Numbered from the stretch's first letter, positions 6,053 to 64,000 are shown. The stretch is 64,000 bases of DNA from Candidatus Altimarinota bacterium (GCA_965250085.1 OZ252287.1:96001-160000), one strand, 5' to 3'. Notes: generated from the letters alone by a model not told the origin. Made by a program: numbers and translations.

Positions 6053-7216
6053 ATGTCTTCAATTATAGGTGTCCTCACAGAAGTAAAGGACAACGAAAAT
6101 CGTATTGCACTCACCCCTGAAGGGGTCGCTCAACTTGTACAAGCAGGCCATAAGGTATTGGTACAACGCCATGCCGGAAAAGGAAGCGGATATCATGACC
6201 ATCAATATATTGATGCAGGAGCTGAAATACAGGCGACGCCAGAAGAGATTGCGAGTGAGGTTGATATTCTGATGAAGGTCAAAGAACCAATAGAAAGCGA
6301 ATATCATCTTTTGGGCCTCCTCAAAGGAAAAACTCTTTTTACGTATCTTCATCTTTCAGGAGTACCCAAATCACTTACCAAAACCTTATTACAGTACAAT
6401 ATCACCGCCATTGCTTATGAAACCGTGGAAGATGCAGATGGAGGATTACCGCTTTTGGTCCCTATGAGTGAAGTGGCAGGGGTACTTGCGGTGCAATATG
6501 GAGCAGAGTATCTCCAGAAAAAATATGGAGGGCGAGCCAAGACACTTGGAGAAATACAAAATGTAAAACAATCAGAAGTAGTTATTTTTGGTGCAGGAAT
6601 AGTCGGAAAAGCTTCGGCCAAAACTGCTGCAGGGATGGGGAGTCATGTTACGCTTTTTGATATCAATGAAGAATCTCTCAAAAGAGCTCGCCAGGAACTC
6701 AAAGCATATCTCGGCTCAAACCTTATACAAAATGTTGTGTTTGCAAAGCCAGATAAAGAGTCTGCAAGTGACGCTATTGCGAGAGCAGATGTTCTGATTA
6801 GTGGGGTACTTGTTCATGGAGCCCATGCCCCTCGGATTGTGAGTAAAGAGCAGGTACATTTGATGAAAGATGGAGCGGTCATCGTAGATGTCTCTATTGA
6901 CCAGGGAGGATCTATTTGGGGAGCCAAGCCAACTACTCATAGCAATCCTATTTATGAACTGGATAGCAAGATTTATTGCTGTGTGACCAATATGCCGGGA
7001 CAAGTAGCCTATCAATCTACGCAGGCTCTCACAGGAGCAACGTTGCCATATATCCTCAAATTGGGAGAAAAAGGCACAGAAAAGGCTTTACAATCTGACA
7101 CAGGATTTCTCAAAGGGCTCAATACCTATAAAGGCTACATCACTTATCAATCAGTAGCAAAAGATCTTAAGATGGTAGGAAAATACATGGATCCCAATAA
7201 AGCACTTACAAAATAA
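6053..7216 (+). CDS. ald: Alanine dehydrogenase
   Basis: IGVLTEVKDNENRIALTP, KVKEP, LFTYLHL, PMSEVAG, DVSIDQGG and NMPG; ATG at 6053 chosen as start. Confidence 0.96.
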   Translation: MSSIIGVLTEVKDNENRIALTPEGVAQLVQAGHKVLVQRHAGKGSGYHDHQYIDAGAEIQATPEEIASEVDILMKVKEPIESEYHLLGLLKGKTLFTYLHLSGVPKSLTKTLLQYNITAIAYETVEDADGGLPLLVPMSEVAGVLAVQYGAEYLQKKYGGRAKTLGEIQNVKQSEVVIFGAGIVGKASAKTAAGMGSHVTLFDINEESLKRARQELKAYLGSNLIQNVVFAKPDKESASDAIARADVLISGVLVHGAHAPRIVSKEQVHLMKDGAVIVDVSIDQGGSIWGAKPTTHSNPIYELDSKIYCCVTNMPGQVAYQSTQALTGATLPYILKLGEKGTEKALQSDTGFLKGLNTYKGYITYQSVAKDLKMVGKYMDPNKALTK

Positions 7217-17525: not shown

Positions 17526-18235
17526 GGCTCTAGAGTAGGAGATTTTAAAAATCTCTGATAATTTTGGACATTATAACAAAAATATCTTGATCTTTATAGT
17601 TCCATCGCCACTCACATTCTTTGAGGTGAAAGTTAAACTTGTGAGAAGCAATTCCGTTAAACTTAGAGAGTCTTCTTTTCGCAAAAGACCAAAAGGATTC
17701 AATACCATTTACATGACATTTTCCTCGTGCAAATTCATTTTCTGAGTGATGAATACGATAGTGATCATATCCATTGAGAATGAGTCCATCATAAGCTCTC
17801 CATCCATCAGTATGAATAGTTGATCCTTCTAGTATTTTTCCTTGAATAATAGGTAGGAGCTCTTTTCTGGAGCAATCTTTTACAATAGAAACAAATACCC
17901 TTCCTTCTCTTTGAAGGATTCCAAAGACAGGAGTCTTTCCTGCGGCTCCTCTTCCTCTCTTTCCTCTCATTCTCTTTGCTCCAAAGTAACTTTCATCAAG
18001 TTCAAATTCTCCAAAACTCTTTGACTGTGCTAAAGAGAACTTTGCAATCTTTTCTCTAAAAATATTAAAATATCGATCAACCGTTCTCCGATTGAGATCT
18101 AGAATATTTGCTGTTTTTGATGCATTGAGATCTTCACAAAAACACTTCAATATTTTTTTGATCTTATAATTCGATATTTTACTGTGTTTAAGCATGTTAA
18201 GAGAATAATTGAAGTAATTATTCTACTCAAGAGCC
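17526..18235 (-). mobile_element. IS1595-family element, copy 1 (710 bp)
   Basis: Terminal IR GGCTCT(A/T)GAGTAG; 8-bp TSD TAAGACTT at 17518-17525 and 18236-18243. Confidence 0.95.
17545..18195 (-). CDS. IS1595-family (ISXO2-like DDE) transposase
   Basis: FELDESYFG, RGRGAAGKTPVFG, IHTDGWRAY and HVNGIESFWS. Confidence 0.95.
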   Translation of the reverse strand: MLKHSKISNYKIKKILKCFCEDLNASKTANILDLNRRTVDRYFNIFREKIAKFSLAQSKSFGEFELDESYFGAKRMRGKRGRGAAGKTPVFGILQREGRVFVSIVKDCSRKELLPIIQGKILEGSTIHTDGWRAYDGLILNGYDHYRIHHSENEFARGKCHVNGIESFWSFAKRRLSKFNGIASHKFNFHLKECEWRWNYKDQDIFVIMSKIIRDF

Positions 18236-21924: not shown

Positions 21925-22467
21925 ATGAAAAAATCATCTCATCTCCATCGAAAAAGAAATCGTTTACAGGGATACGATTATTCACAAAATGGATATTATT
22001 TTGTCACTACATGCACGAAAGGTCGCGTGCAATGGTTTGGTGAAATAAAAGATGATGAAATGCAATTGAGTCGATTTGGACAAATCGCCAAGAAACAATG
22101 GATGTGGCTACAAGATCAATATGATTCTGTGACATTGGATTCATTTGTAATTATGCCAAATCATGTACATGGAATTATCGTCATTGAAAATCAAGGTCAT
22201 GGTAGGGACAACTCTAGAGTTGTCCCTACGCGAGCTGTTCGTGATATGCCTACAGGTCGTCATAATCTCTTATCCAAAACCATAAACGCTTTCAAAACCA
22301 CATCATCAAAATTGATTCGTCAAAATGGTTGCCCTGAATTTATCTGGCAACGGTCGTTTCACGATCATATCATCCGAGATGAAACCGGACTCAATACTAT
22401 TCGTGAATACATCGAGTTTAATCCTTTGAAATGGACTCTAGACAAAGAAAATCCAGAGAATTTTTAA
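21925..22467 (+). CDS. REP-associated tyrosine transposase (RAYT, HUH/Y1 family)
   Basis: RLQGYDYSQNGYYFVT, VIMPNHVHGII (HUH), WQRSFHDHIIRDE and YIEFNPLKW. Confidence 0.9.
   Translation: MKKSSHLHRKRNRLQGYDYSQNGYYFVTTCTKGRVQWFGEIKDDEMQLSRFGQIAKKQWMWLQDQYDSVTLDSFVIMPNHVHGIIVIENQGHGRDNSRVVPTRAVRDMPTGRHNLLSKTINAFKTTSSKLIRQNGCPEFIWQRSFHDHIIRDETGLNTIREYIEFNPLKWTLDKENPENF
22202..22229. repeat. GTAG-headed perfect 28-bp palindrome (REP-like) inside the RAYT gene
   Basis: GTAGGGACAACTCTAGAGTTGTCCCTAC equals its own reverse complement. Confidence 0.85.
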
Positions 22468-41960: not shown

Positions 41961-42670
41961 GGCTCTTGAGTAGAATAATTACTTCAATTATTCTCTTAAC
42001 ATGCTTAAACACAGTAAAATATCGAATTATAAGATCAAAAAAATATTGAAGTGTTTTTGTGAAGATCTCAATGCATCAAAAACAGCAAATATTCTAGATC
42101 TCAATCGGAGAACGGTTGATCGATATTTTAATATTTTTAGAGAAAAGATTGCAAAGTTCTCTTTAGCACAGTCAAAGAGTTTTGGAGAATTTGAACTTGA
42201 TGAAAGTTACTTTGGAGCAAAGAGAATGAGAGGAAAGAGAGGAAGAGGAGCCGCAGGAAAGACTCCTGTCTTTGGAATCCTTCAAAGAGAAGGAAGGGTA
42301 TTTGTTTCTATTGTAAAAGATTGCTCCAGAAAAGAGCTCCTACCTATTATTCAAGGAAAAATACTAGAAGGATCAACTATTCATACTGATGGATGGAGAG
42401 CTTATGATGGACTCATTCTCAATGGATATGATCACTATCGTATTCATCACTCAGAAAATGAATTTGCACGAGGAAAATGTCATGTAAATGGTATTGAATC
42501 CTTTTGGTCTTTTGCGAAAAGAAGACTCTCTAAGTTTAACGGAATTGCTTCTCACAAGTTTAACTTTCACCTCAAAGAATGTGAGTGGCGATGGAACTAT
42601 AAAGATCAAGATATTTTTGTTATAATGTCCAAAATTATCAGAGATTTTTAAAATCTCCTACTCTAGAGCC
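41961..42670 (+). mobile_element. IS1595-family element, copy 2 (710 bp)
   Basis: Same IRs as copy 1; 8-bp TSD TAAAATAA at 41953-41960 and 42671-42678. Confidence 0.95.
42001..42651 (+). CDS. IS1595-family transposase
   Basis: Protein identical to that of 17545-18195. Confidence 0.95.
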   Translation: MLKHSKISNYKIKKILKCFCEDLNASKTANILDLNRRTVDRYFNIFREKIAKFSLAQSKSFGEFELDESYFGAKRMRGKRGRGAAGKTPVFGILQREGRVFVSIVKDCSRKELLPIIQGKILEGSTIHTDGWRAYDGLILNGYDHYRIHHSENEFARGKCHVNGIESFWSFAKRRLSKFNGIASHKFNFHLKECEWRWNYKDQDIFVIMSKIIRDF

Positions 42671-42724
42671 TAAAATAATATGTGAAATATACTTTTTTAT
42701 TTCTTTTTTCACTTTTTTATAAAT

Positions 42725-44446
42725 ATGACATCGTCTATAAAGATATTCTTTGGAACAGGAATTTTTCTTTTGGGTTTTTCTCTTGTATTTGCTGCTGTAC
42801 AGATCTCGGGGCAATCGCAAATAGAAATTTTTTCAGGGGAATACCTCTCTGAAACATATAGCATCGATCCTGGAGCAGGAAATGCCGTGGATACCATTAG
42901 TTGGACGGGGTTGGAGCCAGGGCTTTTTGCGATAGAAAGTCAGGATAAAACAGAGATGTCTCTGCTGGGCTCACCAAAGATTGTTGGAAATCCATCTGTG
43001 TTGACTCTGGCGGCTACAAATAGCTTAGGAGAAAATCAGACTTTGGAAATTGCAATGCAAGAAAGAGCACTGCCTCCTATGTCTTGTGCCGATGTTTTAG
43101 CAGGTGATCCCGGGGCAACTGATGGACTCTATACCATACATGCCGATGATGAGGTGACTTCTTTTGAGGTCTATTGTGACATGACCTCTCCGGGAGGACC
43201 GTATACCCATATGGTAGAACACGTTGCTGCCGGATTTGGGCACACCTGTGCTCTCTTGGCAGACACCACGGTCAAATGCTGGGGATACAATAGATATGGG
43301 CAACTGGGTGATGGAACGACAACTGACCGCAGTACGCCTGTTGCGGTTTCTGGTCTTAATGATGTGGTCTCTCTTTCTGCTGGATGGATGCACACATGTG
43401 CACTCCTGAGTGATGGCAGTGTGCAGTGCTGGGGATATAATTATTACTATAATCTTGGAGATGGAACCCTCACGAACCGTACGACCCCTGTAGCAGTACA
43501 GAATGTTTCTAATGCTGTGCAAATTTCTAGTGATGGGCATCACTCCTGTACTCTTTTGACAGGTGGAACTATGAAATGCTGGGGAAGGAATAGTTATGGA
43601 CAAATAGGAAACAATACTATTGGCACCAGAAGACATGTTACTGTTGTTCTGGGTATAAGTACTGCCACTTCTATTGGTGTTGGTGTCTACCACAGCTGTG
43701 CTGTCCTCAGTGATGGCACCGCTCTGTGCTGGGGGAGGAATAATATCGGACAGATCGGAATAGGAAGCACCAATAATTATATAAAAACTCCAAGAGCTGT
43801 TCTGAATCTTACAAATATCGTCGCGATTGATGGAGGAGAATATCATACCTGCGCTCTGCTCGATGACGGTACGGCTCAGTGTTGGGGAAATGGTTATAAT
43901 GGTCAGTTAGGCGATGGAGCAACTACTTATAGAACTTCTCCGGTAGCGGTTCAAAATTTAAATACTATCGATACATTCAGTTTGGGAGCACGCCATTCTT
44001 GTGTTGTGCTCGATGATGATACAGCTCAGTGCTGGGGACAGAATATATATGGACAGCTCGGTGATGGTACGACGACAAACAGCAGTGTGCCTGTCTCTGT
44101 ACAAGGTATTTCCAATGCACAAAGTATTGTTGGTGGTTCGTATCATACCTGCTCCGCACTCTCAAACAAAACTGCCAAATGCTGGGGAAGGGATACCTAT
44201 GGTCAACTGGGAGGAGGGATTATTACCGGTTTTGAATCCCTGAGTTCTCCCAGCACACTTTCTCAGGAAACTACTTCTGTTTCCGTTCCGGATGACTTTT
44301 CTTTTGACCCCATTGAATACTGCGCCGATATATTGGACAAAGAAAAGAAGCTGGAGAAATGTATGGAAAAATGGGAGCAGGAGGTGGACAAATATTCTGG
44401 AATCGGTCCTAAAAGCCTGACTCCGCAGAGAGTGGAAGGGTTATAG
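42725..44446 (+). CDS. Secreted RCC1-repeat beta-propeller protein with a fibrinogen-like module
   Basis: Signal-peptide-like N-terminus; SCADVL...DGLYTI...[10 protein letters not shown]; seven HTC...CWG.N.YGQLG repeats. Confidence 0.9.
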
Positions 44447-44472
44447 TTCTTTGATTTTTTCTTTTTTATATT

Positions 44473-47400
44473 ATGCGAAAATTATTTTCTGTTCTCTGTT
44501 GTTTAATATTTCTTTCCGGACAAATCACTTTCCTTCCTCAAGTATCTGCTGAGGAAGTACTCGAATCATCGACTTCAATTTTTGCGGAAACAACAGACGA
44601 TCCCAATACAAAAGGAAAACCTGCTGGAAGTTCTGAAGAGCGTGATGTGATCCTTGATCCGGCACTATTAGGATCTCTGGAAAGCAAGGGGCAGGTCACA
44701 AAAGAAAAGGGTGAATCAGTGCTGATAGCTCCTTTGGAAGACGCTTTTCAAGAGAATACCGACACCTCTTCGCTTTCATCCGAATCCTTGTCGGCAAGTT
44801 CTTCCTCTTCTTCATCAGATCCGATGGATGCTGTTTCCAATGCTCCTTTGCCCGATGTAAATACTGATCCGCTCAAAAACATTGCAGGTGTGCAGGGAGA
44901 ATATAGCGTCAGTGAATTTACGGGAGATGTGCAATATTCGTACCCCCTCTTTATGCCTCCTGGCAGGAATGGTAGCTCTCCTTCTGTTACGCTCAGTTAC
45001 TCTGCTAGTAATAAAGAGGGCAATTCTGAACTGGGAACGGGATGGAATTTAGATCTTCCCAAAATCGAACGGTATTCTCGCACAGGAGTGGAAAATCTGT
45101 ATGCCAATAATAATTTTCTTTCTCCCTTTGCCGGTGGTAATGGTGAGCTTTCCATTGACTCTATTGATGCCAATGGACACGGGACGTATATCCCCAAAAT
45201 ACAAACAGGAGCGGTCTATCATGAATTCAAAGCAGACAACACTTGGGAGATTACTGATGCCGCAGGGGTGGTGTATCGATTTGGAACGGTATCAGATGCA
45301 CGAGAACAAAGTGATGATGGCGGTAGAATGTACACCTGGTATCTGACCGAAATAGAAGACACTAATGGCAACAAGATGATATATGAATATACCAAGAGCC
45401 AGGGGTCTGTATATCTGAAGCGTATACTCTATGGAAATGAAGCCCAGCCCTATGAAGTACGATTTGAACCCTATTTTTCCGGCACTCTTGAGCAGTTTGA
45501 TGTACTTCCGTCTTATTCTCGTCTTTTCCCAGTGGTGGAGCAAAAAGACTTATTGGACTCTGTAGAGGTTTTTGATCCGTTTTCAGGAGACAAGATCGTG
45601 TATGAACTTACTTATGATACTCAAGGAACCTTTGGCTCTTCCGAAAGCCTTTCGGGCACTACTGACTATCTTATCAGCATCCAGCAAAAAGGAGTGGCGG
45701 CTTCTGGTGTGGAAACCAGTTTGCCGCCGACCGAATTTGAATACGAGAGCTATGATGGGTCCCGATCATTTGACATTGTCTATCCGGATTTGAGTGATGA
45801 AAATGGCTATGACAACACGTATTTCGATGGAACGGAGGACAGCCCCGTTCCCATGTGGATTTTTGCTGATGAAACCGGAGATGGATGGGAAGACCTGGTC
45901 AGCAATGTAGTGCGATATAAGAAAATTAATGGCAGTTATCATCATTTGCCGTATGAACGCTTATTTGTTTCACAGGGAAATGGCGAATGGGTGGAAGATC
46001 CTGATTTTATGGCTTCGGAATCATACTGGGCATGGGAGTATAGGCCCCATGATATCCGGGATTATTTTCCACCCGGATACAGAGACAATAACGGAGATGT
46101 GACCGATCATCTCTGTATTCGGAAATATCATGGAAATCTGGGTCAAAAAGATGGTTTGAGTTGCTATAACGGCGAGCATGGGAATGAGATGAAAGTGTAC
46201 CCAAGAGATGAAGACTTCCAGTTTTTGGAACTCAACGCAGATGGGCATCCGGATGGATTTAAGTATGACCATAAACAAAATTATCACAACAACACCGATA
46301 ATTCCCTGTATAGAAATACCGGAACGGCGTTTGAACCGGAAACAAGTGCTCAGTGGAATATTCCGGATGATATCTTTTATGATGAAGGCAGTACACTGTT
46401 TGGAGATATCAATGGAGACGGACTGGATGATATGGTGCACTGGTTTCAGAAAGTGGATGAATCTTCCGTTCTGGTGGAAGAAACCAAGAGAGCCTACCTC
46501 AACACCGGAGAAGGTTGGCAAGATATCACTGCAGATATTTCACTGCCTGTTCCTATTCGCCATCGCAAATGTCAGAACGGAGTCAGTACCTGTGAAGTGA
46601 TTTCTGTGAAAAAAACCTTTACCTTTCTCGATGCCAACAGAGATGGACTGGTGGATCTCTTTCATCAAGGGAAAGTGCACCTGAATAATGGATACGGCTG
46701 GGAAAGCACTGTTTCGGAGCTGTACAACAGTTCATATGACTTTGATCCCAGTTTTCCCACGCTGAGCAGCTTTACAGATCTCAACAAAGACGGTGCTTTT
46801 GAACGCAAAAAGCCGGTTGGAAAAACATTTGCCAACAATAATGAGATCGTAGATCTTCCCGTGCTCACAAATGTTACAAGCCCTCAAGGAGGATTTGCCG
46901 AATTTGAATACACTCCTGCCTCGAGTTACACCAATGCCGATGGCAGTGCGGCGAATATTGAGCTCCCTATACCTCGTCTGACGTTATCTAAGCTTACAAC
47001 CGATGACGGAATGGGAAATACAAGTGAAACCAATTATGAATATGCCGGTGGAAAGATGTATCGCAATCATGTTTCTGAGCAAGAGCTTTTGGGATTTCAT
47101 ATGGTCACCAAAGCATTGCCGGATAATTCAAAAATTATTACAGAATATGAGCAAGGGAGTGCCTCACAAAACTTTGCTGGGAAAGGGTCTCTTACAAATC
47201 AGAAAATATACACTTCTTCTGGAGATCTTTTGCAGGAAACACAGAATTTTTATGACATTGAACCCCGCGGAACCAATAGTTACGAATCCCTCCTGGAAAC
47301 AAGTATCAATCTGACATATTCAGAACACAATCCTTCAAATTATAAAGCCACAGCCTCAGAATACACCTATGACCAGTATGGAAATATCATTCAGGCCATT

Positions 47401-50400
47401 GACTATGGAGAGGTGAATGTAGTGGACACAGCAGGCAACTTCACCGATATTGGCTCCGATACTCTCACCAGCAATATTGAATATGCAGAGAATGCGGCAG
47501 ATCATATTCTCTCTCTTCCTCAGAGACAGGAACTCCTGGATAATTCCGGAACGGTTATTGGTGAAAGCAAAATCTATTATGACAATCTGCCACTGGGTCA
47601 AGTGAGCATCGGCAATCGCACCAAGACGGAAACACTCGCTTGTACTGGTCAGGCATGCCTGACCCCTACGGTGACAACTCTTACAGAGTACAACTCCTAC
47701 GGTCTGCCGACAAAGGTGACCAATCCTCGAGGGTATGACACCAATATCACGTATGATTCTCAGAATCTCTTCCCAGAGACAATTACGAATGCCAAATTAC
47801 AAATTACAAATTACGAATACGATTATCTGTTTGGAATACCCGTGGAAGTGACCGATCCAAATGGAGCGAAGTCAATTACCGTGCTGGATTCTCTCGGACG
47901 AGTCACAGAAATCAAAGTCACTGATCCGAATAATACTGATACAGAAATCATCGCGAGCACCATTAACTACGACACTACATCAGTACCGAATAGTGTCACG
48001 ACGACGACATACACCCACACTCCTCCCCTCTTTCGCAAAGAGGGGCTGGGGGAGATTTCTGTAGAGGGAGTTATGTATCTCGATGGATTTGGAAGACTTA
48101 TTCAATCGCGGACTGAAGCAGAAGGGAGTGCACAGTATACAGTGCACAGTATACAGTATGATGATCGGGGGAATATGGACAAACAAACTCTTCCTGTCTT
48201 CCAGAGTGGAATCTCATATACAGCTTCATCAGGATCTGAAGTAGGGAGTACGTATACGTATGATGCTCTGAGCAGAGTGCTGAGTGAAATAACTCCAGTG
48301 GGAACGACTTCTACTGCGTATGATCAGTGGTCACAAACGGTGACTGATGCCAATGGACATCCAAAGGACTTTACTTCTGACGCTCGAGGAAATCTGACTG
48401 AGGTGACCGAACACTTGGACGGAACTCCATATGACACGAACTATGCCTATGATCAGCTGAACAATCTCATCACAATCACAGATGCCAAGGGAAACATCAG
48501 AAACTTCACATATGACCTCCTGGGAAGACGTATCAGCATGGAAGATTTGCATACAGCAAACGATGCAACTTTCGGACTGTGGACTTTTGACTATGATGAC
48601 AACAGCAATCTCATCACTCAAACCGATCCAAAGGATCAGGAAATTTCTTACACCTATGATGAACTCGATAGAGTCCTCACCGAATCAGCAAAAATTCCTC
48701 CGTCTTCCGTCTTCGAACTGCACACTTCATACGCCTATGACACCGGAACGTATGGCATTGGACGCCTTTCATCAATAGTGAGTCCCGCTGTGACCAAGAA
48801 CTACACGTATGACATCCTCGGTAGAGTTATAAATGAACAAAAAAAGATTCTCGTACGGATTGATGGCAATCAATCCCTACAAACTTTCGACTCGTACTTC
48901 ACGTACGATCTCGCCGGCAATCAGCTCAGTATCACCTATCCTGGTTCGACAGGCTCACCACAAGCGAACATGCTCGTGGAATACACCTACAACAACGCTG
49001 GCCTTCTGGAAGCTGTACAAAAGGATGGAGCAGACATCGTCACTAATCTCGACTACATCCCTGTGGGGCTGGTCGAGAAAATTGATTACGCCAATGGCGT
49101 CAGCACCACCAATACGTATGACATTGGCCAAATCTATCGATTGACCAATAAATCCACCCTCCTTCACCAAGGTTCCGGCGGGCAGGCCGTACATCAGGAT
49201 ATCAGCTACACTTTTGATCCTGTGGGAAACATCACCCAGATCACAGACACCTCAGAGACCAACGCTGCCAAGACTTCTACATTTACCTATGATGATCTGG
49301 ACAGGCTTCTTTCTGCAACCGTGAGCAATGCGGCCAATGGCGATAATTATGCGCGCAACTATACCTATGATATCATTGGCAACATGCTGAGCCATTCAGA
49401 AGCCGGCAGTTATGAATACGCTGGAGGCGACTCTGGGACCAGCTCAGGAGCAAACTCCAATCCTCATGCCGTGACCGATGTGGCAGGAGTGGCGTATAGC
49501 TATGATGATAATGGTAATCTCATATCAAATAACACTTGGACCCATGGTTGGGATTATAAAGATCGCTTGCTGAGCTCTACAGATGGAACAGCTACGGTGA
49601 ACTATACCTATGATGAAGGGGGAGCGAGGGTGAAGAAGGTGAATGCGACCAGTGGCAAAGAGACGGTGTATGTGAATGAATTTGTGGATATCGAGGATTC
49701 TGCTGTGAAGAATCATATCTACGCCGGAGGGATGAAAGTGGCCACCTATTCTGCTGGAATTGCCAGTGGCAGTGGGAGTACGTGTACGGTAGATCTGAGT
49801 ACATGTACAGGGGAAGGAGCAAGATCGCCGTTATGGGAGAATGAGACTTCTCTCAATGGAGCTATAACTGAAGCGCATTATTTAGAAACATATGGACAGA
49901 TGTGTGTGGTGATCTTGTCTGGTGGAGAACAGGTGGCATGGCCTGTAGCTCAGGAAGCAAGCTGGTGGTGTGGTGAAGTGAGTATCCCTGTCTATGAGAG
50001 TGATATAGTCTATCACCATGAAGATCACTTAACGGGATCAAATGTAGACACCGATGACACAGGAAACCTCATTCAGCTATTAGACTACTACCCCTATGGA
50101 GATACTAGACTCGATGAACAGTCATCATCGTACGCAAATGACTATAAGTTTACAGGGAAGGAGAAGGATGAGGATACAGGACTCTATTATTATGAGGCGA
50201 GGTATTATGATAGTGGGATTGGGAGGTTTATATCACTCGATCCCTGGTTTGGAGATATTTATGACCCGCAGAGTTTGAATAAGTATGCGTATGTGAGGAA
50301 TAATCCATTGAAGTATGTGGATGAGACGGGGGAGGTCTATCAAAAAATAGTAGACTGGGCTCTAAAGTGGGCTGCAAAAAAAACACTTCGAAAGGAAATT

Positions 50401-50826
50401 GAAGAAATGATCTTTCCTGAGCAAACGGCAGGAGAACCTGATCCTCGTATTCCTGAATCATCTTATTCTCAGGTTCAAACTATATTTAACTCAAATGGAT
50501 TACAGGCAAACTCCGTTCGAAGATTTTATGATGATGTTATTATCTCAGGGATCAGTGAAAACAATCAAAATTTCACAGTAAATGTTGGTCCAGAATCTAT
50601 AAGCTTATATATATCCTTCGAAGACTCTACAATTAGCTCTGCGGTAACCATTGACCTTACGAGCTCATTCCCTACAAGTGTAATGGAGAAAATTGATGAT
50701 GAGGGATCAGTTGCTAGACTGGAATTAGTTGTTCGTAGTAAACTTGAGAATCATTATAAAAGTATTAAGCCAAAAGAAGATGGAAAAGATGAAGAAAGTG
50801 AAACTGACAATGATTCAGGGGATTAA
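44473..50826 (+). CDS. Large Rhs/YD-repeat polymorphic toxin with signal peptide, SpvB-like and FG-GAP-like regions and an unknown C-terminal tip
   Basis: YSYPLFMPPGRNG...LSYS...GWNLDLPKIER, DINGDGLDD, many YD repeats, YKFTGKEKDEDTGLYYYEARYYD and NNPLKYVDETG. Confidence 0.93.
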   Translation: MRKLFSVLCCLIFLSGQITFLPQVSAEEVLESSTSIFAETTDDPNTKGKPAGSSEERDVILDPALLGSLESKGQVTKEKGESVLIAPLEDAFQENTDTSSLSSESLSASSSSSSSDPMDAVSNAPLPDVNTDPLKNIAGVQGEYSVSEFTGDVQYSYPLFMPPGRNGSSPSVTLSYSASNKEGNSELGTGWNLDLPKIERYSRTGVENLYANNNFLSPFAGGNGELSIDSIDANGHGTYIPKIQTGAVYHEFKADNTWEITDAAGVVYRFGTVSDAREQSDDGGRMYTWYLTEIEDTNGNKMIYEYTKSQGSVYLKRILYGNEAQPYEVRFEPYFSGTLEQFDVLPSYSRLFPVVEQKDLLDSVEVFDPFSGDKIVYELTYDTQGTFGSSESLSGTTDYLISIQQKGVAASGVETSLPPTEFEYESYDGSRSFDIVYPDLSDENGYDNTYFDGTEDSPVPMWIFADETGDGWEDLVSNVVRYKKINGSYHHLPYERLFVSQGNGEWVEDPDFMASESYWAWEYRPHDIRDYFPPGYRDNNGDVTDHLCIRKYHGNLGQKDGLSCYNGEHGNEMKVYPRDEDFQFLELNADGHPDGFKYDHKQNYHNNTDNSLYRNTGTAFEPETSAQWNIPDDIFYDEGSTLFGDINGDGLDDMVHWFQKVDESSVLVEETKRAYLNTGEGWQDITADISLPVPIRHRKCQNGVSTCEVISVKKTFTFLDANRDGLVDLFHQGKVHLNNGYGWESTVSELYNSSYDFDPSFPTLSSFTDLNKDGAFERKKPVGKTFANNNEIVDLPVLTNVTSPQGGFAEFEYTPASSYTNADGSAANIELPIPRLTLSKLTTDDGMGNTSETNYEYAGGKMYRNHVSEQELLGFHMVTKALPDNSKIITEYEQGSASQNFAGKGSLTNQKIYTSSGDLLQETQNFYDIEPRGTNSYESLLETSINLTYSEHNPSNYKATASEYTYDQYGNIIQAIDYGEVNVVDTAGNFTDIGSDTLTSNIEYAENAADHILSLPQRQELLDNSGTVIGESKIYYDNLPLGQVSIGNRTKTETLACTGQACLTPTVTTLTEYNSYGLPTKVTNPRGYDTNITYDSQNLFPETITNAKLQITNYEYDYLFGIPVEVTDPNGAKSITVLDSLGRVTEIKVTDPNNTDTEIIASTINYDTTSVPNSVTTTTYTHTPPLFRKEGLGEISVEGVMYLDGFGRLIQSRTEAEGSAQYTVHSIQYDDRGNMDKQTLPVFQSGISYTASSGSEVGSTYTYDALSRVLSEITPVGTTSTAYDQWSQTVTDANGHPKDFTSDARGNLTEVTEHLDGTPYDTNYAYDQLNNLITITDAKGNIRNFTYDLLGRRISMEDLHTANDATFGLWTFDYDDNSNLITQTDPKDQEISYTYDELDRVLTESAKIPPSSVFELHTSYAYDTGTYGIGRLSSIVSPAVTKNYTYDILGRVINEQKKILVRIDGNQSLQTFDSYFTYDLAGNQLSITYPGSTGSPQANMLVEYTYNNAGLLEAVQKDGADIVTNLDYIPVGLVEKIDYANGVSTTNTYDIGQIYRLTNKSTLLHQGSGGQAVHQDISYTFDPVGNITQITDTSETNAAKTSTFTYDDLDRLLSATVSNAANGDNYARNYTYDIIGNMLSHSEAGSYEYAGGDSGTSSGANSNPHAVTDVAGVAYSYDDNGNLISNNTWTHGWDYKDRLLSSTDGTATVNYTYDEGGARVKKVNATSGKETVYVNEFVDIEDSAVKNHIYAGGMKVATYSAGIASGSGSTCTVDLSTCTGEGARSPLWENETSLNGAITEAHYLETYGQMCVVILSGGEQVAWPVAQEASWWCGEVSIPVYESDIVYHHEDHLTGSNVDTDDTGNLIQLLDYYPYGDTRLDEQSSSYANDYKFTGKEKDEDTGLYYYEARYYDSGIGRFISLDPWFGDIYDPQSLNKYAYVRNNPLKYVDETGEVYQKIVDWALKWAAKKTLRKEIEEMIFPEQTAGEPDPRIPESSYSQVQTIFNSNGLQANSVRRFYDDVIISGISENNQNFTVNVGPESISLYISFEDSTISSAVTIDLTSSFPTSVMEKIDDEGSVARLELVVRSKLENHYKSIKPKEDGKDEESETDNDSGD

Positions 50827-50844
50827 TTTACTACCCTTTTTTTT

Positions 50845-51492
50845 ATGGTGAAAAAAATATTTTCAAAACTTCCAATTCCAATAATATGGACCATTAATAT
50901 TTTGCTGTTCCCTTTTTATTATTTGGTTGTCGCTTTCATTTTTGGAATTATTGACGGATATTTTTTTAATGGCAGTATTTTTACGGAAGAAAGAGAATCA
51001 GTTTGGGATTTATTAACATATATACTTTTTGGAATAGTTGGACTATTAAGTTATTTGTTTCATAGGTCTCTTTATTTTAAAATAAATTCTGAACAACGAA
51101 AAATATTTCAAGGGTTTCTAGTAGTGATAGGATACGTGCTTCTAATAGATTTTATATCCGTTTTTGGCTATACGATTTATGAACTTATTTTTATAGACTC
51201 TTTTTTAGTAGTATTAATTGACTTAACGCTTTCTGTTTTTTTATTCTCTGTCCTTTATCTCTTTTTTAAGAGGAAAAAAAATTACCGAATTATTCTTGTT
51301 ATCTACTTGTGCATAGGTATTTTTGCGCCTTTCTTGCATGATTCCCTTTATGATTATTTAGAAATTGAAAAACCTTTCAGGTTTTTTGAAATAAGTGTTG
51401 AGTCTTTTTTATGGATTATTTACAGAATTGTGGCAATTATTTATCTCAAAAAAACTCCCTCCCCGATAGAGCCTGTTTGTCGTAGACCATGA
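50845..51492 (+). CDS. Multi-TM protein, putative immunity protein
   Basis: Starts 18 nt after the Rhs stop; very AT-rich; about 6 hydrophobic segments. Confidence 0.65.
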   Translation: MVKKIFSKLPIPIIWTINILLFPFYYLVVAFIFGIIDGYFFNGSIFTEERESVWDLLTYILFGIVGLLSYLFHRSLYFKINSEQRKIFQGFLVVIGYVLLIDFISVFGYTIYELIFIDSFLVVLIDLTLSVFLFSVLYLFFKRKKNYRIILVIYLCIGIFAPFLHDSLYDYLEIEKPFRFFEISVESFLWIIYRIVAIIYLKKTPSPIEPVCRRP

Positions 51493-51858
51493 GTATCAAA
51501 TAGTAGTGATGCGTGCAATAATGTTTCCCCTGCCCCCCCCGCTTCCGCGGGAGCAAGTGTCTCGCAGAGCACCTGGTCCAAAGCAATTCATAAGCTACCA
51601 ATTGGACTGACATACTTCAAAAACATCTCTTTCTCATCTTTCTGGTGCCGTCATCGTTGGCTGAAGTCTTCCACCACGGCGGACAGGTTTGGACTCGAAC
51701 GCTAACAAATAATTTAACAATGCTGCCAAAGCAAAAGCAATAAAAAGAGTGAGTAAGTACAAAGTATGGCAAGATGGAAATAGACCAAAGGGATAAAAGG
51801 GGTCGGCCACCTTTAATCGGAGGAAAGATATATCACCATCATAAATCAGGTTTATATA

Positions 51859-52929
51859 GTGCCCATGCCAAAAAACAATATATCCAAAACCTCATCAACT
51901 TTTATTGCTCATTCTCAACGTGGTAACACATTGATACACGATGTACTGGAGTATCACCATGAGGATCACCTCACAGATTCGGCAAGCTCACTGCGGGCGG
52001 ATTTTAATGTAGATACGGATGATATGGGCAATGTTCTTGTGGTACTGGACTACTATCCCTATGGGGACGTGAGGTTGGATGAACAGAGTAGTTCATATGA
52101 GAATGACTATAAGTTTACGGGGAAAGAGAAGGATGAGGATACGGGTTTGTATTATTATGAAGCGAGGTATTATGATTCTGGGATTGGGAGGTTTACTGCT
52201 ATTGACCCGATGGCAAAACTTTCTCCAGAAACTTTCCTGAAGGATCCTCAGCAATTAAATTCGTACACTTATGTCCGTAATAATCCCTTGGGTGCAATTG
52301 ATCCTGATGGGCTTCTCACTATCTTTATTCATGGAACTGTTTTGCCAGGAAAAAATACAAATCCATTTTCTGAGGGTTATATGAAACAAGTTGCTACGGA
52401 TCTTGGAGATAATAGCTATACAAATTTCTCTTGGTCAGGAACGAGTAGTGAAAAGGCAAGAACAGAGGCCGCAAGAAACCTGGAGTCTTTGGTTAGAAAC
52501 TACGAATTTTCTGAGGGGGAACAGTTAAATATCGTGGGGCATAGCCACGGTGGGAATGTTTCCATTGAAGCCATAAACACGAATAGAATGCTTCGCAATG
52601 TAGACAACCTTGTTCTTCTGGGTGCCCCAAATAGAGATGATTATACTTTAGATAATGATAATGTTGGGGCTGTGTACAATGTCTATTCATTGGAAGACAA
52701 TATACAAAATAACTGGGGCGGAGAATTTACTACTAATCCCGCAGAGTCTACCTATGCTAATCATCCGTGGAGAGCTGGCGAAAACGTGAAGAATCTTCGC
52801 TTTAGAGACATGAATAAGGGTCCAATTGAAACTCACTCATGGCTAAGAACACAGGAAGCTTGGAGTTATATTCGTAAATTTATAGAAGACAAAGATGAGG
52901 AAAGTTCGGATGACAAAGATGCAAGTTAA
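51859..52929 (+). CDS. Orphan Rhs C-terminal cassette with an alpha/beta-hydrolase (lipase-like) tip; true start uncertain
   Basis: Rhs core from about 51943; NNPLGAIDPDG, IFIHG, FSWSG, VGHSHGG (GxSxG), LLGAP and late D and H residues. Confidence 0.85.
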   Translation: MPMPKNNISKTSSTFIAHSQRGNTLIHDVLEYHHEDHLTDSASSLRADFNVDTDDMGNVLVVLDYYPYGDVRLDEQSSSYENDYKFTGKEKDEDTGLYYYEARYYDSGIGRFTAIDPMAKLSPETFLKDPQQLNSYTYVRNNPLGAIDPDGLLTIFIHGTVLPGKNTNPFSEGYMKQVATDLGDNSYTNFSWSGTSSEKARTEAARNLESLVRNYEFSEGEQLNIVGHSHGGNVSIEAINTNRMLRNVDNLVLLGAPNRDDYTLDNDNVGAVYNVYSLEDNIQNNWGGEFTTNPAESTYANHPWRAGENVKNLRFRDMNKGPIETHSWLRTQEAWSYIRKFIEDKDEESSDDKDAS

Positions 52930-52943
52930 TCTAATTTTTTACT

Positions 52944-53279
52944 ATGTCATTATTTTTTACACTGCCTTACTGTTTCGCGATTGTATCGCTCCATATAATT
53001 TCATTTTTTTTTGATTTATATGATACGGCCTGGGCATTTATTCCATTTTTTGTAATTTTCTTTTCCACATTATTTTTTATCTTGAGCTCATTTCTTGTTG
53101 TTAAACTGGTTTGTAATAAAAAAACAGAAAATAATTGGTACATCAAGTATTTAAAAGATCATAAACTACAATTCACCATTATTACGATTGTTCTCACAAT
53201 TCCTGTTTATTGTATCTTCAATGTAATAGCTTATTATTTGCTTTCTTTTTGGGGGGTCGATAGCAATTTTTGGTTTTGA
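52944..53279 (+). CDS. Small TM protein, putative immunity protein
   Basis: Starts 14 nt after the toxin stop; three hydrophobic segments. Confidence 0.6.
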   Translation: MSLFFTLPYCFAIVSLHIISFFFDLYDTAWAFIPFFVIFFSTLFFILSSFLVVKLVCNKKTENNWYIKYLKDHKLQFTIITIVLTIPVYCIFNVIAYYLLSFWGVDSNFWF

Positions 53280-53379
53280 TTTAAGTCCTATGATATTATA
53301 AGTCCACGCGGGAGCAGGTGTTCTGAGAGAAGCGAATGACACCTGCTCCTATAAATCCCTTCTTTTAGCTCATAAAAAC

Positions 53380-53478
53380 ATGAAAGTAGTCACCTCTTCA
53401 GCCGGCATCGCTAGTGGCAGTGGCAGTACGTGCACAGTTGATTTGAGTGGATGTAGCAGTCAGGACATGTCCCCGCTA
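53380..53478 (+). pseudogene. Short Rhs core remnant
   Basis: Encodes MKVVTSSAGIASGSGSTCTVDLSGC..., paralogous to the segments near 49732 and 53846. Confidence 0.7.
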
Positions 53479-53524
53479 GCGCGCGTTTGTAACGCGTGCA
53501 ATAAATAAACACTTTCAAGAATCC

Positions 53525-54490
53525 ATGTCAAAAAACTATACCTCTAACCCCCATGCAGTAACAGAAATAGCTGGTGTACCCTACTCCTACGATCCCAACG
53601 GCAATCTCACCTCCAATGATACCTGGAATCACTCTTGGGATTATAAAGACCGACTGCTGAGCAGTGCAGATGGAAGTACAACGGTGAACTATGAATATGA
53701 TGAGGGAGGCAATAGAGTGAAGAAGGTGAATACCTCAAGTGGGAAAGAAACCGTGTATGTGAATGAATACGTAGATATTGAGGATTCTGACCCTTCGACC
53801 GGCTCAGGACCTGCGGCAGTGAAAAATCATATCTATGCTGGAGGAATGAAGATAGCAACGTATTCTGAGGGTATTGCCAGTGGCACAGGGAGCACCTGTA
53901 CAGTTGACCTCAGTGGATGTGCTGGAGAAGGAGACACATCTCCACTCTGGGAGAATGAAACTTCACTCTCTGGAGTTTTGCAGGAAGAAGCTCATTATCT
54001 AGAAATCTCTGGAGATATGTGTGTGGTGTCTCTGGAGGGAGGAGAACAGGTTGCATGGCCAACAGAATCTGAACCCTCTTGGTGGTGTGGAGAAGTGAGT
54101 ATTCCTGTCTTTGATAGTGATATTGTGTATCACCATGAAGATCACTTAACGGGATCAAATGTAGACACCGATGACACAGGAAACCTCATTCAGCTCTTAG
54201 ACTATTATCCCTATGGAGATGTGAGGCTGGATGAACAGTCTTCTTCTTATGAAAATGACTATAAGTTTACGGGCAAGGAAAAGGATGAGGATACGGGGCT
54301 GTACTACTATGAAGCACGGTATTATGATAGTAGTATTGGGAGGTTTGTGAGTTTGGATCCTTTGGTAAAAGTGTCTCCAGAGGTTTTCTTAGTTGATCCA
54401 CAGCAACTTAACGGTTACTCATATGTTTCAAACAATCCCTTAAATGCTATCGATCCTGATGGACTTCTTACTATTTTTATTCATGGGTGA
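53525..54490 (+). pseudogene. Orphan Rhs core cassette whose tip is truncated after DPDGLLTIFIHG
   Basis: Closely paralogous to the last part of the main Rhs core; TGA follows 8 codons after DPDG. Confidence 0.8.
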
Positions 54491-54770
54491 TGACACTGAA
54501 ATACCTGACGGAGCACAAATCCTCTCAGAGCGAGGACTTCTTGATCTGGACACTGAGTATAAATATGTCAACAAAGGTCAATTTGAAAGATCTGAAAAAG
54601 ATACATGGGTTGAAAGTGGAAAAAATCCTGATTTTGCTGGTTCAGCTCAATGGTTTAGAGATTGCGTTATATCTGATACGTTCTTCTTGAATGATAGATT
54701 TCCTAACACTCAGTATCCAAATCGGGGTTCGCGTCGCGTGCTCAGGGTCAACTTGAACTTTGAATCTTAA
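54483..54770 (+). CDS. Hypothetical protein or fragment of another toxin tip
   Basis: ORF overlaps the truncation point in a shifted frame and is followed by a terminator. Confidence 0.4.
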   Translation: MGDDTEIPDGAQILSERGLLDLDTEYKYVNKGQFERSEKDTWVESGKNPDFAGSAQWFRDCVISDTFFLNDRFPNTQYPNRGSRRVLRVNLNFES

Positions 54771-54800
54771 ATTTTTCTTACACTTTAGCTTTATCCTTCT

Positions 54801-54824
54801 AGACCGCCTCATGGCGGTCTTTTT
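54801..54824 (+). terminator. Intrinsic terminator closing the Rhs locus
   Basis: AGACCGCC-TCAT-GGCGGTCT-TTTT. Confidence 0.8.
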
Positions 54825-61997: not shown

Positions 61998-62120
61998 TAA
62001 TTAGTATATTTGTCAAATATCTGCTGATAAAAGTACTCCTTAGTATGTTTTTTAAATTGATTTTTTCGCTTATTTATGAGAGAATAATGGGAAATGTTTG
62101 TTTTTCAAAACACATATCAA

Positions 62121-64000
62121 ATGCCAGACCAAGTACCTGTCCAACCAATGCCTGAAAATATGCCGCAAAATCCTGCTTCTCAGGGTGCTACAGAGCCTGT
62201 AATAGCATCAGAGGTTCCTCCAGCCCAAGCACCCTCAAACCAAACTCCGACAGCAATACCTCAGGGAGAGCCACTGATTTTGGAAGAAATACCAGAAAAA
62301 CGAGGATTTTTTGCACGACTTTTAGGAAAGAAGACTCGTGCAGAAAAAGTGGCACAACAAGAAGCCAAAACTATTGAATCTGCTGGAAAAAAGCACTCCA
62401 AAGGACTTACAAAAGAAGAAGAGCGTCGTATTAAAGAAGCAGAAAAAATGTATCGAGAAGGCATGACGACGATCAAAGATCTCATTGCTCCAAGTGCAAT
62501 GGAGGTAAATTTTGATCATGTCAAAATTGGAAATGTATATGCACGGAGTTTTTTTGTATATTCGTATCCACGATATATAGATGCGAACTGGCTTTCTCCC
62601 GTTATTAATTTGGACACAACACTTGATGTTTCTCTGTTTGTCTATCCAAGTAATTCGGCAGAAATCATGAAAACGCTTCGGAATAAAGTGGCACAAATGC
62701 AGTCGACCATGCATTTGAATCAGGAAAGGGGCATGGTGCGTGATCCGGCACTTGAAGCTTCACTGCAGGATGCAGAAGAACTCCGTGACAAACTCCAGCG
62801 CGGTCAGGAAAAATTCTTTCACTTTGCGTTGTATTTTACGATCTATTCTTCTGATTTAGAAAAACTCAAAAAAACACAAACACAGCTGGAATCCATTTTG
62901 GGAGGAAAACTTATTCTCACAAAAAGTGCAAACCTTCAGCAAGAACACGGATTCAACTCATGCCTTCCGACCTGTACTGATGAAGTGGAAGTGCTGCGTA
63001 ATATGAATACCTCACCTCTTTCCACGAGTTTTCCATTTACCAGTTCAGAACTCACTTCGAACGAAGGGATTCTCTATGGACTCAATCGCCATAATGATTC
63101 TCTGGTTATTTTTGATCGTTTCTCACTCGAAAATGCCAACTCAGTTATTTTTGCCAAATCTGGTGCGGGTAAATCATATGCAGTAAAACTTGAAATCCTT
63201 CGTTCACTTATGATGGGAACAGACGTGATTGTAATTGATCCGGAAAATGAATATGAAACACTCTGTGAAACAGTGGGAGGAAAAATTCTTAAGGTATCGC
63301 TCAATTCTGAACGACGTATCAACCCATTTGATCTTCCTATTCCTATTGAAGACCACGTCACCAAGCCGGGTGATCTGCTCCGTGCCAATATCATTACTCT
63401 TCATGGGTTGTTTAATCTCATGCTCGGGAAGCTGACGCCGACAGAGGAGGGGATTATGGACAAAGCGATGATCGACACCTACGCTCTCAAGGGAATTACT
63501 CTGGAAACTGAAGATCCGGGAGATATGGAGCCGCCCACCATGCAGGATTTGGCAGAAGTACTCGGCACTATGAAGGGAGCAGAAAGCCTGAAAGAACGTC
63601 TCCAGAAATTTACCACAGGAACATTTTCGGGTATTTTTAATCAGTCCACTAACATTGATCTTTCCGGAGGACTTGTTGTCTTTCAAATTCGTGACTTAGA
63701 AGAAGCACTGAGACCTATTGCAACATACATTATTCTCAATTTTATTTGGAATAGAGTACGCTCATCTCTCAAAAAGAGACTTTTGGTCGTAGATGAGGCA
63801 TGGATCCTGATGCAATATGAAGATTCTGCGAGATTTCTCTACGGACTGGTGAAACGAGCACGAAAGTACTATCTCGGTGTTACGACCATCACGCAGGATG
63901 TGGAGGATTTCCTCAATAGTGATTTTGGGAAACCAATTATTACGAACTCCTCAATGCAACTCCTCCTTAAGCAGTCACCAACCGCTGCTGAAGCACTCAC
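62121..64000 (+). CDS. VirB4-like ATPase, partial at the right window edge
   Basis: Manual translation from ATG at 62121 gives a Pro/Gln-rich N-terminus, DLIAPS, YGLNRHNDSLVIFDRF, FAKSGAGKS (Walker A), IDPENEY and VVDEAW (Walker B). Not in the ORF track. Confidence 0.9.
   Translation, partial: MPDQVPVQPMPENMPQNPASQGATEPVIASEVPPAQAPSNQTPTAIPQGEPLILEEIPEKRGFFARLLGKKTRAEKVAQQEAKTIESAGKKHSKGLTKEEERRIKEAEKMYREGMTTIKDLIAPSAMEVNFDHVKIGNVYARSFFVYSYPRYIDANWLSPVINLDTTLDVSLFVYPSNSAEIMKTLRNKVAQMQSTMHLNQERGMVRDPALEASLQDAEELRDKLQRGQEKFFHFALYFTIYSSDLEKLKKTQTQLESILGGKLILTKSANLQQEHGFNSCLPTCTDEVEVLRNMNTSPLSTSFPFTSSELTSNEGILYGLNRHNDSLVIFDRFSLENANSVIFAKSGAGKSYAVKLEILRSLMMGTDVIVIDPENEYETLCETVGGKILKVSLNSERRINPFDLPIPIEDHVTKPGDLLRANIITLHGLFNLMLGKLTPTEEGIMDKAMIDTYALKGITLETEDPGDMEPPTMQDLAEVLGTMKGAESLKERLQKFTTGTFSGIFNQSTNIDLSGGLVVFQIRDLEEALRPIATYIILNFIWNRVRSSLKKRLLVVDEAWILMQYEDSARFLYGLVKRARKYYLGVTTITQDVEDFLNSDFGKPIITNSSMQLLLKQSPTAAEAL

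Follow-up and report, generated by a model that had tools for sequence, protein, structure and literature searches.

A predicted Sec-exported SpvB/Rhs polymorphic toxin with orphan cassettes in a bacterium of the Gracilibacteria class

The predicted toxin and its cassettes

We analyzed a locus in a 64,000-nucleotide stretch of DNA (hereafter the window) from Candidatus Altimarinota bacterium, which spans bases 96001-160000 of a closed 1,368,807-bp genome that we label G000 and has a GC content of 40%. Open reading frame (ORF) calls place the locus on the plus strand at 42.7-54.8 kb of the window, a span of approximately 12 kb. Judged from its sequence, this locus very probably encodes a polymorphic toxin of the 'TcdB/TcaC' class, a TcB-TcC fusion exported by Sec, accompanied by orphan cassettes, in a member of the Gracilibacteria class of the Patescibacteria. 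Bacterial weapons of this kind are known, but the lineage that carries this one has been studied little. An initial annotation of this DNA had described a stand-alone Sec-type toxin with SpvB and YD-repeat domains, behind which come membrane genes that resemble immunity genes and orphan cassettes of core and tip. All of the elements that it listed were recovered on the plus strand at the same coordinates, and domain searches and hydropathy analysis supported the description. Its suggestion that the organism belongs to the candidate phyla radiation (CPR) holds at the level of class, since the same-class relative G032 is named as Candidatus Gracilibacteria, which NCBI places in the Patescibacteria group.

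The main toxin gene (44473..50826, +) is predicted from Pfam, NCBIfam, and hydropathy to encode a protein 2117 amino acids (aa) long. At its N-terminus is a predicted signal peptide (aa 1-26), recognized by hydropathy and by eye: its start is basic, aa 4-15 are hydrophobic, and it has a ...VSA/EE site. This is followed by an acidic, Ser-rich linker that extends to approximately aa 130, an SpvB domain (PF03534) at aa 149-310 (44917-45402; 57 bits against a cut-off of 22), and a region of FG-GAP-like repeats at aa ~430-800 (45763-46872). The YD-repeat region (Pfam RHS_repeat, E 1.2e-28) continues to aa 1871 and leads into an Rhs_assc_core domain (TIGR03696) at aa 1872-1953 (50086-50331; 78 bits). 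The last 164 aa (aa 1954-2117; 50332-50823) form the tip. Searches of PDB sequences showed that the core matches TcC-type proteins, namely RHS2 (5kis_B, E 1e-24), TccC2, and YenC2, as well as Rhs proteins from type VI secretion systems (T6SS), and that the YD region resembles the bacterial teneurin-like proteins 9pt5 and 9ifo. The Pfam family TcdB_toxin_midN had no match in G000 and was matched in several relatives from the class.

After each gene that bears a tip comes a small, AT-rich one predicted to encode a multi-pass membrane protein. The first of these, TM1 (50845..51492, +), starts 18 nucleotides (nt) after the Rhs stop codon and encodes a 215-aa protein with approximately 6-7 hydrophobic segments that is a candidate immunity protein for the main tip. 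Orphan cassette 1 (51859..52929, +; 356 aa) is comprised of an Rhs core (Rhs_assc_core, 81 bits) and a lipase-like tip; homology to the core begins at ~51940, the core domain lies at 52051-52314, and the tip of ~200 aa occupies 52333-52926. The cassette is followed by TM2 (52944..53279, +), which encodes a 111-aa protein with three hydrophobic segments and is the candidate immunity gene for the lipase tip. No Pfam or NCBIfam family was found for TM1 and none above any cut-off for TM2. The GC content of these membrane genes is 28%, compared to 45% for the shell gene.

The tip of orphan 1 has weak matches to alpha/beta-hydrolases, including Abhydrolase_8 at 22.5 bits (cut-off 20.5) and PGAP1 below its cut-off. 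There are three lipase-like tips in the genome, and all three conserve a GHSHGG elbow, an Asp, and the His of an HSW motif. Their best PDB matches, which are weak (E 0.024), are small lipases, and 2 to 3 metagenome proteins have this same tip joined to an Rhs core. The five tips of the genome are unrelated in sequence, yet all of them finish with a short acidic tail rich in Lys, Asp, Glu, and Ser.

Farther downstream are a hairpin repeat element with 11-13-bp arms (53305..53349, +), found with a genome repeat search, and a 76-nt Rhs remnant of approximately 25 codons (53380..53455, +) with 80% nt identity to positions 49732-49807 of the main Rhs gene. These are followed by orphan cassette 2 (53525..54490, +; 321 aa; Rhs_assc_core, 84 bits), which contains the last YD repeats and the core and matches aa 1662-1953 of the main protein at 76.5% aa identity. 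Its tip consists of eight residues of the lipase type and then a stop codon; orphan 2 is a truncated, dead cassette. The reserve of tips that the initial annotation proposed is therefore dead in part. The end of orphan 2 is overlapped by orfX (54444..54770, +; 108 aa), which shares 45-51% identity with the C-terminal ends of two ORFs from other parts of the genome, one of 394 aa (L049:141-1325, -) and one of 278 aa (L050:294-1130). This family has a conserved C-terminal end and no Pfam match. We considered orfX as a hidden tip and rejected this, as what is joined to the truncated tip is a 3' fragment, out of frame, from a non-Rhs ORF family. The locus is closed by a terminator-like hairpin (54801..54820, +) with eight pairs, six of them G-C, a loop of four, and then a T run; as a class, terminator-like sites are not enriched there (8 found versus 9.2 expected).

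We also examined the sequences preceding the genes. None of the genes in the locus is preceded by a Shine-Dalgarno-like sequence (40-nt leaders checked at 42685-42724, 44433-44472, 50805-50844, and 52904-52943). T-rich leaders precede the RCC1 gene that lies upstream of the toxin gene (see below), the Rhs gene, TM1, and TM2, and are absent before both orphans.

Several points weigh against our assignment. Signal peptides were judged by a hydropathy script and by eye alone, FG-GAP_3 scored 17.9 bits on the main Rhs protein, which is under the Pfam cut-off of 26.9, and an AlphaFold2 model of aa 1-1000 built from eight sequences had a mean predicted local distance difference test (pLDDT) score of 49, which is too poor for a propeller or shell to be assessed. 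The cleavage motif of the main gene is PLKYVDETGE (...VDETGE) rather than the canonical DPxGL of the lipase cassettes, which reads PLGAIDPDGL in the orphans. The main tip is without relatives: a word-index search returned the query itself only, an exhaustive HMMER search against 1.84 billion representatives gave one marginal match (E 2.1e-4), and the ESM Atlas gave no usable match. Single-sequence modeling of this tip reached a pLDDT of 62 in one of five models and matched no fold, with nothing found by Foldseek in PDB at E <= 0.001. The toxicity of the main tip is assumed because of its position alone. Because the orphans have no T-rich leaders and orphan 2 breaks off early, part of the reserve is dead, and because the membrane proteins that follow the three lipase tips are not clearly homologous, the pairing of tips with immunity proteins is positional. 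Lastly, four public runs contain the stretch, all of them as contigs from one sample of one study and none of them RNA. The contigs in these runs break where core segments are repeated, the sides of the listed joints measure 25-30 nt, and several loose contig ends resemble the paralogues in a second array described below.

Recombination tracts and a second array

The initial annotation had proposed that tips and cassettes recombine, an idea that is supported by mosaic tracts of identity. The main gene matches orphan 2 over 775 nt (49455-50229) at 75.6% nt identity and matches orphan 1 at 77% over 50041-50230. Embedded in this similarity is a 68-nt tract that is exactly shared by the main gene (50011-50078) and orphan 2 (54128-54195). 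A longer exact tract of 232 nt is shared by orphan 1 (52123-52354) and an orphan lipase cassette at a second locus (L009 ~6712-6943); it crosses the core-tip junction and has flanks that are 65-78% and 53-62% identical. These tracts are far beyond what chance would yield at the background divergence and show that cassettes have converted one another in the past, as the idea of a reserve array requires. The 232-nt tract indicates that gene conversion between the two loci was recent.

The second locus (locus B, with the locus in the window termed locus A) is a larger, paralogous array of ~14.5 kb. It is located ~780 kb away on the minus strand (G000:C1 ~922.8-937.4 kb) between dprA and a TatD gene, and we give positions in it relative to the segment L009 (G000:C1:920001-939900). 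Its SpvB/Rhs protein is 2456 aa long, has a lipase-like tip, and is 57.5% identical to the Rhs protein in the window over aa 1-1767. The Rhs gene is followed, in order, by a membrane protein gene (189 aa), the gene of a Y1 (IS200-like) transposase, an orphan lipase cassette, a pair of membrane protein genes, an orphan with a glycine-rich hydrophobic tip ending in LysM, a further membrane protein gene, and a core remnant. Locus B thus has four membrane genes and two orphan cassettes.

The 45-nt hairpin repeat at 53305-53349 (fold energy -22.6 kcal/mol, z -2.27) is found in six copies genome-wide (E <= 0.01). These are exclusive to the two Rhs arrays, with one copy in locus A and five in locus B (L009 2867-2911, 3324-3364, 7352-7392, 8917-8950, and 9184-9222). 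This distribution raises the alternative that an IS200-like Y1 transposase acting on hairpin ends is mainly what builds and reshuffles the array, and that it also gives the orphans their start codons. Consistent with this, the start of the Y1_Tnp gene in locus B (L009:8328-8921, -; 28.1 bits against a cut-off of 23) overlaps a hairpin copy, Y1 gene fragments in that locus are interleaved with or fused to Rhs core fragments, one orphan ORF opens with Y1 N-terminal residues, and one hairpin copy truncates an Rhs core. Additionally, in the relative G029 a Y1_Tnp gene is located immediately 3' of the Rhs gene. However, the tracts of perfect identity are inside the core-tip junction, as predicted by homologous gene conversion. 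The hairpin arms decay without compensating changes, the copies are all in direct orientation, locus A has one clear hairpin copy and no transposase, and the two Y1 proteins are only distantly alike. We also count against this alternative that insertion sequences within Rhs elements are known from E. coli. We therefore regard assembly by the transposase as unlikely and favor homologous recombination among the cassettes of a polymorphic toxin.

The upstream slot and the genomic setting

Directly upstream of the toxin gene is a gene (42725..44446, +) predicted from Pfam, NCBIfam, and hydropathy to encode a 573-aa RCC1 protein. The initial annotation had paired a signal-peptide RCC1/fibrinogen-like gene with the SpvB/YD gene, and Pfam confirmed the RCC1, SpvB, and RHS families, with FG-GAP_3 and Fibrinogen_C remaining below cut-off. 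The protein matches WD40_RLD (E 5.9e-75) and has seven RCC1_2 stretches, so that seven repeats are accounted for; at the level of DNA, six repeat copies with a spacing of 150 nt were detected. From the N-terminus, it contains a predicted signal peptide, a region of ~90 aa without an assigned family, a GGGWT motif, a seven-bladed propeller (aa ~164-510), and a Cys-containing tail (aa ~511-573). The motif matches the NCBIfam fibrinogen-like family GGGWT_bact at aa 120-161 with 45.6 bits (cut-off 30), and Pfam Fibrinogen_C gives 19 bits, which is under its cut-off. The N-termini of both the RCC1 and the main Rhs protein are basic and lead into a hydrophobic stretch with an A-x-A-like site after it, as judged by a hydropathy script and by eye, and the script detected no further hydrophobic segment in either. 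The two genes are on the same strand and separated by 26 nt that contain no terminator-like site. The RCC1 gene is probably co-transcribed with the Rhs gene and would encode a secreted surface-binding protein. A search with the RCC1 tail retrieved only itself among 5.8 billion proteins. We asked if this tail is common to upstream proteins, and this was ruled out by its absence from the upstream proteins of the relatives G015, G032, and G034.

The initial annotation had suggested that the RCC1 propeller is the targeting partner of the toxin. In its full form, this alternative holds that the RCC1/fibrinogen-like propeller is a dedicated targeting or docking subunit that replaces TcA and binds the Rhs protein as well as a target-cell receptor. 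The short intergenic gap agrees with this, as does DNA homology between loci A and B that spans the 3' end of the RCC1 gene, the spacer, and the start of the Rhs gene (44310-44507, 72%), from which it follows that the RCC1-Rhs junction is older than the duplication of the locus. The remnant in locus B is informative in two ways. A degraded RCC1-tail-like gene that retains the last ~50 codons, with an in-frame TAG, precedes the Rhs gene there and speaks for the pairing; yet the 2456-aa Rhs ORF is intact although no complete RCC1 gene accompanies it.

We surveyed 401 genomes of the class, including G000, for this pairing. SpvB matches were found in 66 of these genomes, nearly all within ORFs of 1,200-2,650 aa, and RCC1 matches were found in 31. 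Only four genomes (G000, G015, G105, and G152) contain both, compared to approximately five expected if the two were independent, and the genes are linked in two of the four (G000 and G015). Co-occurrence is therefore no better than chance, and RCC1-Rhs synteny in the class is confined to these two genomes. There are 62 genomes with SpvB and no RCC1 match and 27 with RCC1 and no SpvB, the latter often within giant surface proteins. Querying with the RCC1 protein gave no match in the other 11 genomes of the family to which G000 belongs, although two of these have Rhs. In searches for related loci, none was found in genome contigs with a single protein as query, one was found on a G032 contig with a three-sequence alignment, and none was found in metagenome contigs.

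Looking upstream of the Rhs gene at 27 loci from relatives (6 + 19 + 2; one further locus had no upstream DNA), we found a different neighbor. An RCC1 gene was present at one locus (G015), where an operon-like run leads from the RCC1 gene through an FG-GAP gene to the Rhs gene, and a phage tail-collar protein was encoded at another (G032). At 11 loci, a small gene for a secreted FG-GAP-like protein was directly upstream on the same strand. Large secreted repeat or pilin-like genes were found at a few loci, and the remainder had no co-oriented gene. The C-terminal end of the G015 RCC1 protein (L022:13986-15497, -) and the G032 tail-collar protein (L023:6093-6977, +) have a 29-aa fibre-like motif in common (pairwise E 7e-4), and both genes sit 5' of SpvB/Rhs genes.

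We built a profile of the small FG-GAP-like proteins from 13 sequences of seven genomes and searched the class with it. Free-standing copies (ORFs of less than 450 aa) were found in 27 genomes and, in 25 of these (29 loci), a copy is located less than 3 kb upstream of an SpvB match on the same strand; this linkage holds in 18 of 20 genomes when those that supplied the profile are excluded. The proteins are secreted and ~150-250 aa long; they carry a single FG-GAP-like blade motif as well as conserved Cys residues, and have a Y-G-D-C-A motif in the C-terminal part. The genes are often in two to three tandem copies, and the proteins belong to no Pfam family (examples are L033:3065-4243, L034:1350-2839, L015:116-1390, L019:230-1265, and L022:12808-13941). 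No free-standing member was found in G000, where the profile matched only inside the two Rhs ORFs, including aa 627-683 of the main Rhs protein (E 2.3e-8). Taken together, the upstream survey and the profile search identify the small FG-GAP-like family, rather than RCC1, as the accessory that recurs with this toxin class. The small family is missing from G000 and from G032, its closest Rhs relative, and that slot is taken there by an RCC1 or a tail-collar gene.

These results make it doubtful that the RCC1 propeller is a dedicated substitute for TcA. What remains in its favor is the 26-nt gap, the G015 run, linkage in two of the four genomes with both families, the relic before the locus B Rhs gene, and the motif that connects the G015 protein to the tail-collar protein in the same slot of G032. 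Set against these are the chance-level co-occurrence, an RCC1 tail without relatives, the absence of RCC1 from the rest of the family, and the fact that even in G015 the usual small-family gene separates RCC1 from Rhs.

The surrounding genes are unrelated to the toxin system. A transposase gene of the IS1595 family (42001..42651, +; Pfam DDE_Tnp_IS1595, E 5.3e-33) ends 73 nt 5' of the RCC1 gene. There are at least 14 copies of this transposase in the genome with protein identity of at least 99.5%, two of them in the window (17545-18195, -, and 42001-42651, +), which is an unusually heavy insertion-sequence load for a 1.37-Mb genome. The locus is followed on its 3' side by genes for a HEAT-repeat membrane protein and dnaA, and the remainder of the window is housekeeping in nature, including rpoD, dnaG, GAPDH, ispDF, and relA/spoT. 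A Y1_Tnp-like gene (21925-22467, +; 30.3 bits) and a gene for a TraG/VirD4-like P-loop protein (62094-63998, +), which continues past the end of the window, are also unrelated to the locus. The relatives of G000 retrieved by genome search have small genomes of 0.6-1.9 Mb. In some class members, in-frame TGA codons occur in the same genes, as expected for recoded Gracilibacteria, and the genes of G000 are clean in translation table 11.

Comparison with known systems and proposed function

Proteobacteria and Firmicutes are well-known carriers of polymorphic Rhs toxins. The closest described type is the 'TcdB/TcaC' class which, in the portions of Zhang et al. 2012 (PMC3482391) that define it, has a signal peptide, SpvB, integrin-like (FG-GAP) repeats, RHS repeats, and a variable C-terminal toxin, together with an immunity gene downstream and standalone cassettes from which tips can be replaced. 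The predicted signal peptide, SpvB domain, RHS repeats, core with a cleavage motif, and arrangement of tip, immunity gene, and cassettes are all found in the locus described here. It differs in having an FG-GAP region that scores weakly in Pfam, an orphan sequence as its main tip, an RCC1 gene upstream, and immunity candidates that are all multi-pass membrane proteins. The CPR is missing from the phyla that Table 1 of that paper gives for the class. In open-access and bioRxiv literature, we found no description of an SpvB-Rhs toxin for Patescibacteria, Peregrinibacteria, or Gracilibacteria; the only related statement was in one paper (PMC10031880), where an 'Rhs family' gene is named in passing for CPR genomes.

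The locus also resembles the TcB-TcC cocoon of the Tc (ABC) toxins of Photorhabdus and Yersinia (see also Song et al. 2021, PMC7861908) in its SpvB start, YD shell, and matching core, and in the replacement of tips via recombination in the core. Here, in contrast, the B and C components are fused in one ORF with a predicted Sec signal, and we did not file the locus as an ABC toxin. The TcA families PF18276 and PF03538 had no match in the closed genome, but control genomes were equally silent. The likely target is the bacterial envelope rather than insect cells. The locus has its predicted YD shell and self-cleaving core, its polymorphic tip with an immunity gene, and its orphan cassettes in common with Rhs effectors of the T6SS and Sec-dependent YD toxins of the WapA type. 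To our knowledge, WapA has no SpvB N-terminus. A T6SS and linkage to PAAR or VgrG were not found. The initial annotation had noted that PAAR is lacking from the window, and this extends to the whole genome, where neither PAAR_motif nor the VipB sheath family had a match and controls were positive.

A third comparison is with bacterial teneurin-like proteins, which in the sections of Raoelijaona et al. 2026 (PMC13018210) that describe them have a Sec signal, a YD shell, a small polymorphic C-terminal toxin, and an immunity gene directly downstream, with a tip that is membrane-active and toxic only if exported. According to the same sections, these proteins have an FN-plug and an NHL propeller, unlike the SpvB and FG-GAP-like repeats seen here, and the sections make no mention of orphan arrays. 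A Pfam scan of the main Rhs protein found no NHL or fibronectin families at E <= 0.01.

The similarity of the YD region to 9pt5 and 9ifo could instead mean that the protein is mainly a surface adhesin or contact organelle for host attachment, much like a teneurin, with a tip that is secondary or inactive. The group to which the organism belongs is thought to live attached to other cells, and the main tip has no recognizable toxin fold, both of which would fit such a role. This explanation is at odds with the tips of relatives that have the same architecture, which include a barnase-type tip followed by a Barstar gene in G034, an Ntox44 tip in G032, and an orphan with CHAP in G015 and are thus bona fide toxins with immunity. 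It also leaves unexplained why the lipase-like tips keep their catalytic motif, why every tip is followed by an immunity-like gene, and why cassettes have been diversified by gene conversion. We consider a primarily adhesive function highly improbable and return to the exported toxin in proposing how the locus may work.

The shell-and-cleavage mechanism is known from solved Tc and Rhs systems. By analogy, the YD repeats would form a closed shell that encloses the tip, and the aspartyl protease of the core would free the tip by cleavage within the shell. The loaded shell would leave by Sec to the cell surface or medium, with the tip released on a neighboring cell that might be a competitor or a host bacterium. 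Tips may then hit the cell envelope from the outside, as suggested by the lipase-like tips and by the tip in locus B that is glycine-rich, hydrophobic, and has LysM. Membrane-embedded immunity proteins would shield the membrane of the producer. Such candidates fit a cell without an outer membrane, because an exported toxin would meet the producer membrane from the outside. New tips could enter the main gene through homologous recombination in the conserved core DNA.

How bacteria of the candidate phyla attack or hold other cells is largely open. In a genome of 1.37 Mb, two loci of ~12 kb and ~14.5 kb appear to be given to Sec-exported shell toxins, whose tips look envelope-directed. Approximately one-sixth of the sampled genomes of the class carry such a gene, which makes the class tractable for the study of TcB-TcC-type delivery without TcA or a contractile machine. 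The second array, the traces of gene conversion, the orphan-sequence tip, the membrane immunity candidates, and the small accessory family in relatives are new here and worth following. The small upstream family, which is found in relatives and not in the window, is a concrete candidate for an accessory factor. As a speculation that we hold to be rather unlikely, the slot upstream of TcA-less, Sec-exported TcB-TcC fusions in Gracilibacteria might encode an extracellular docking or targeting subunit. This would usually be the small one-blade FG-GAP-like protein bearing a C-terminal Y-G-D-C-A and, in the lineages of G000, G015, and G032, it would be joined or replaced by a swappable RCC1-fibrinogen-like or tail-collar binder. 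If true, such a subunit would provide small-genome episymbionts with a TcA-independent means of delivering toxins onto the cells that they inhabit.

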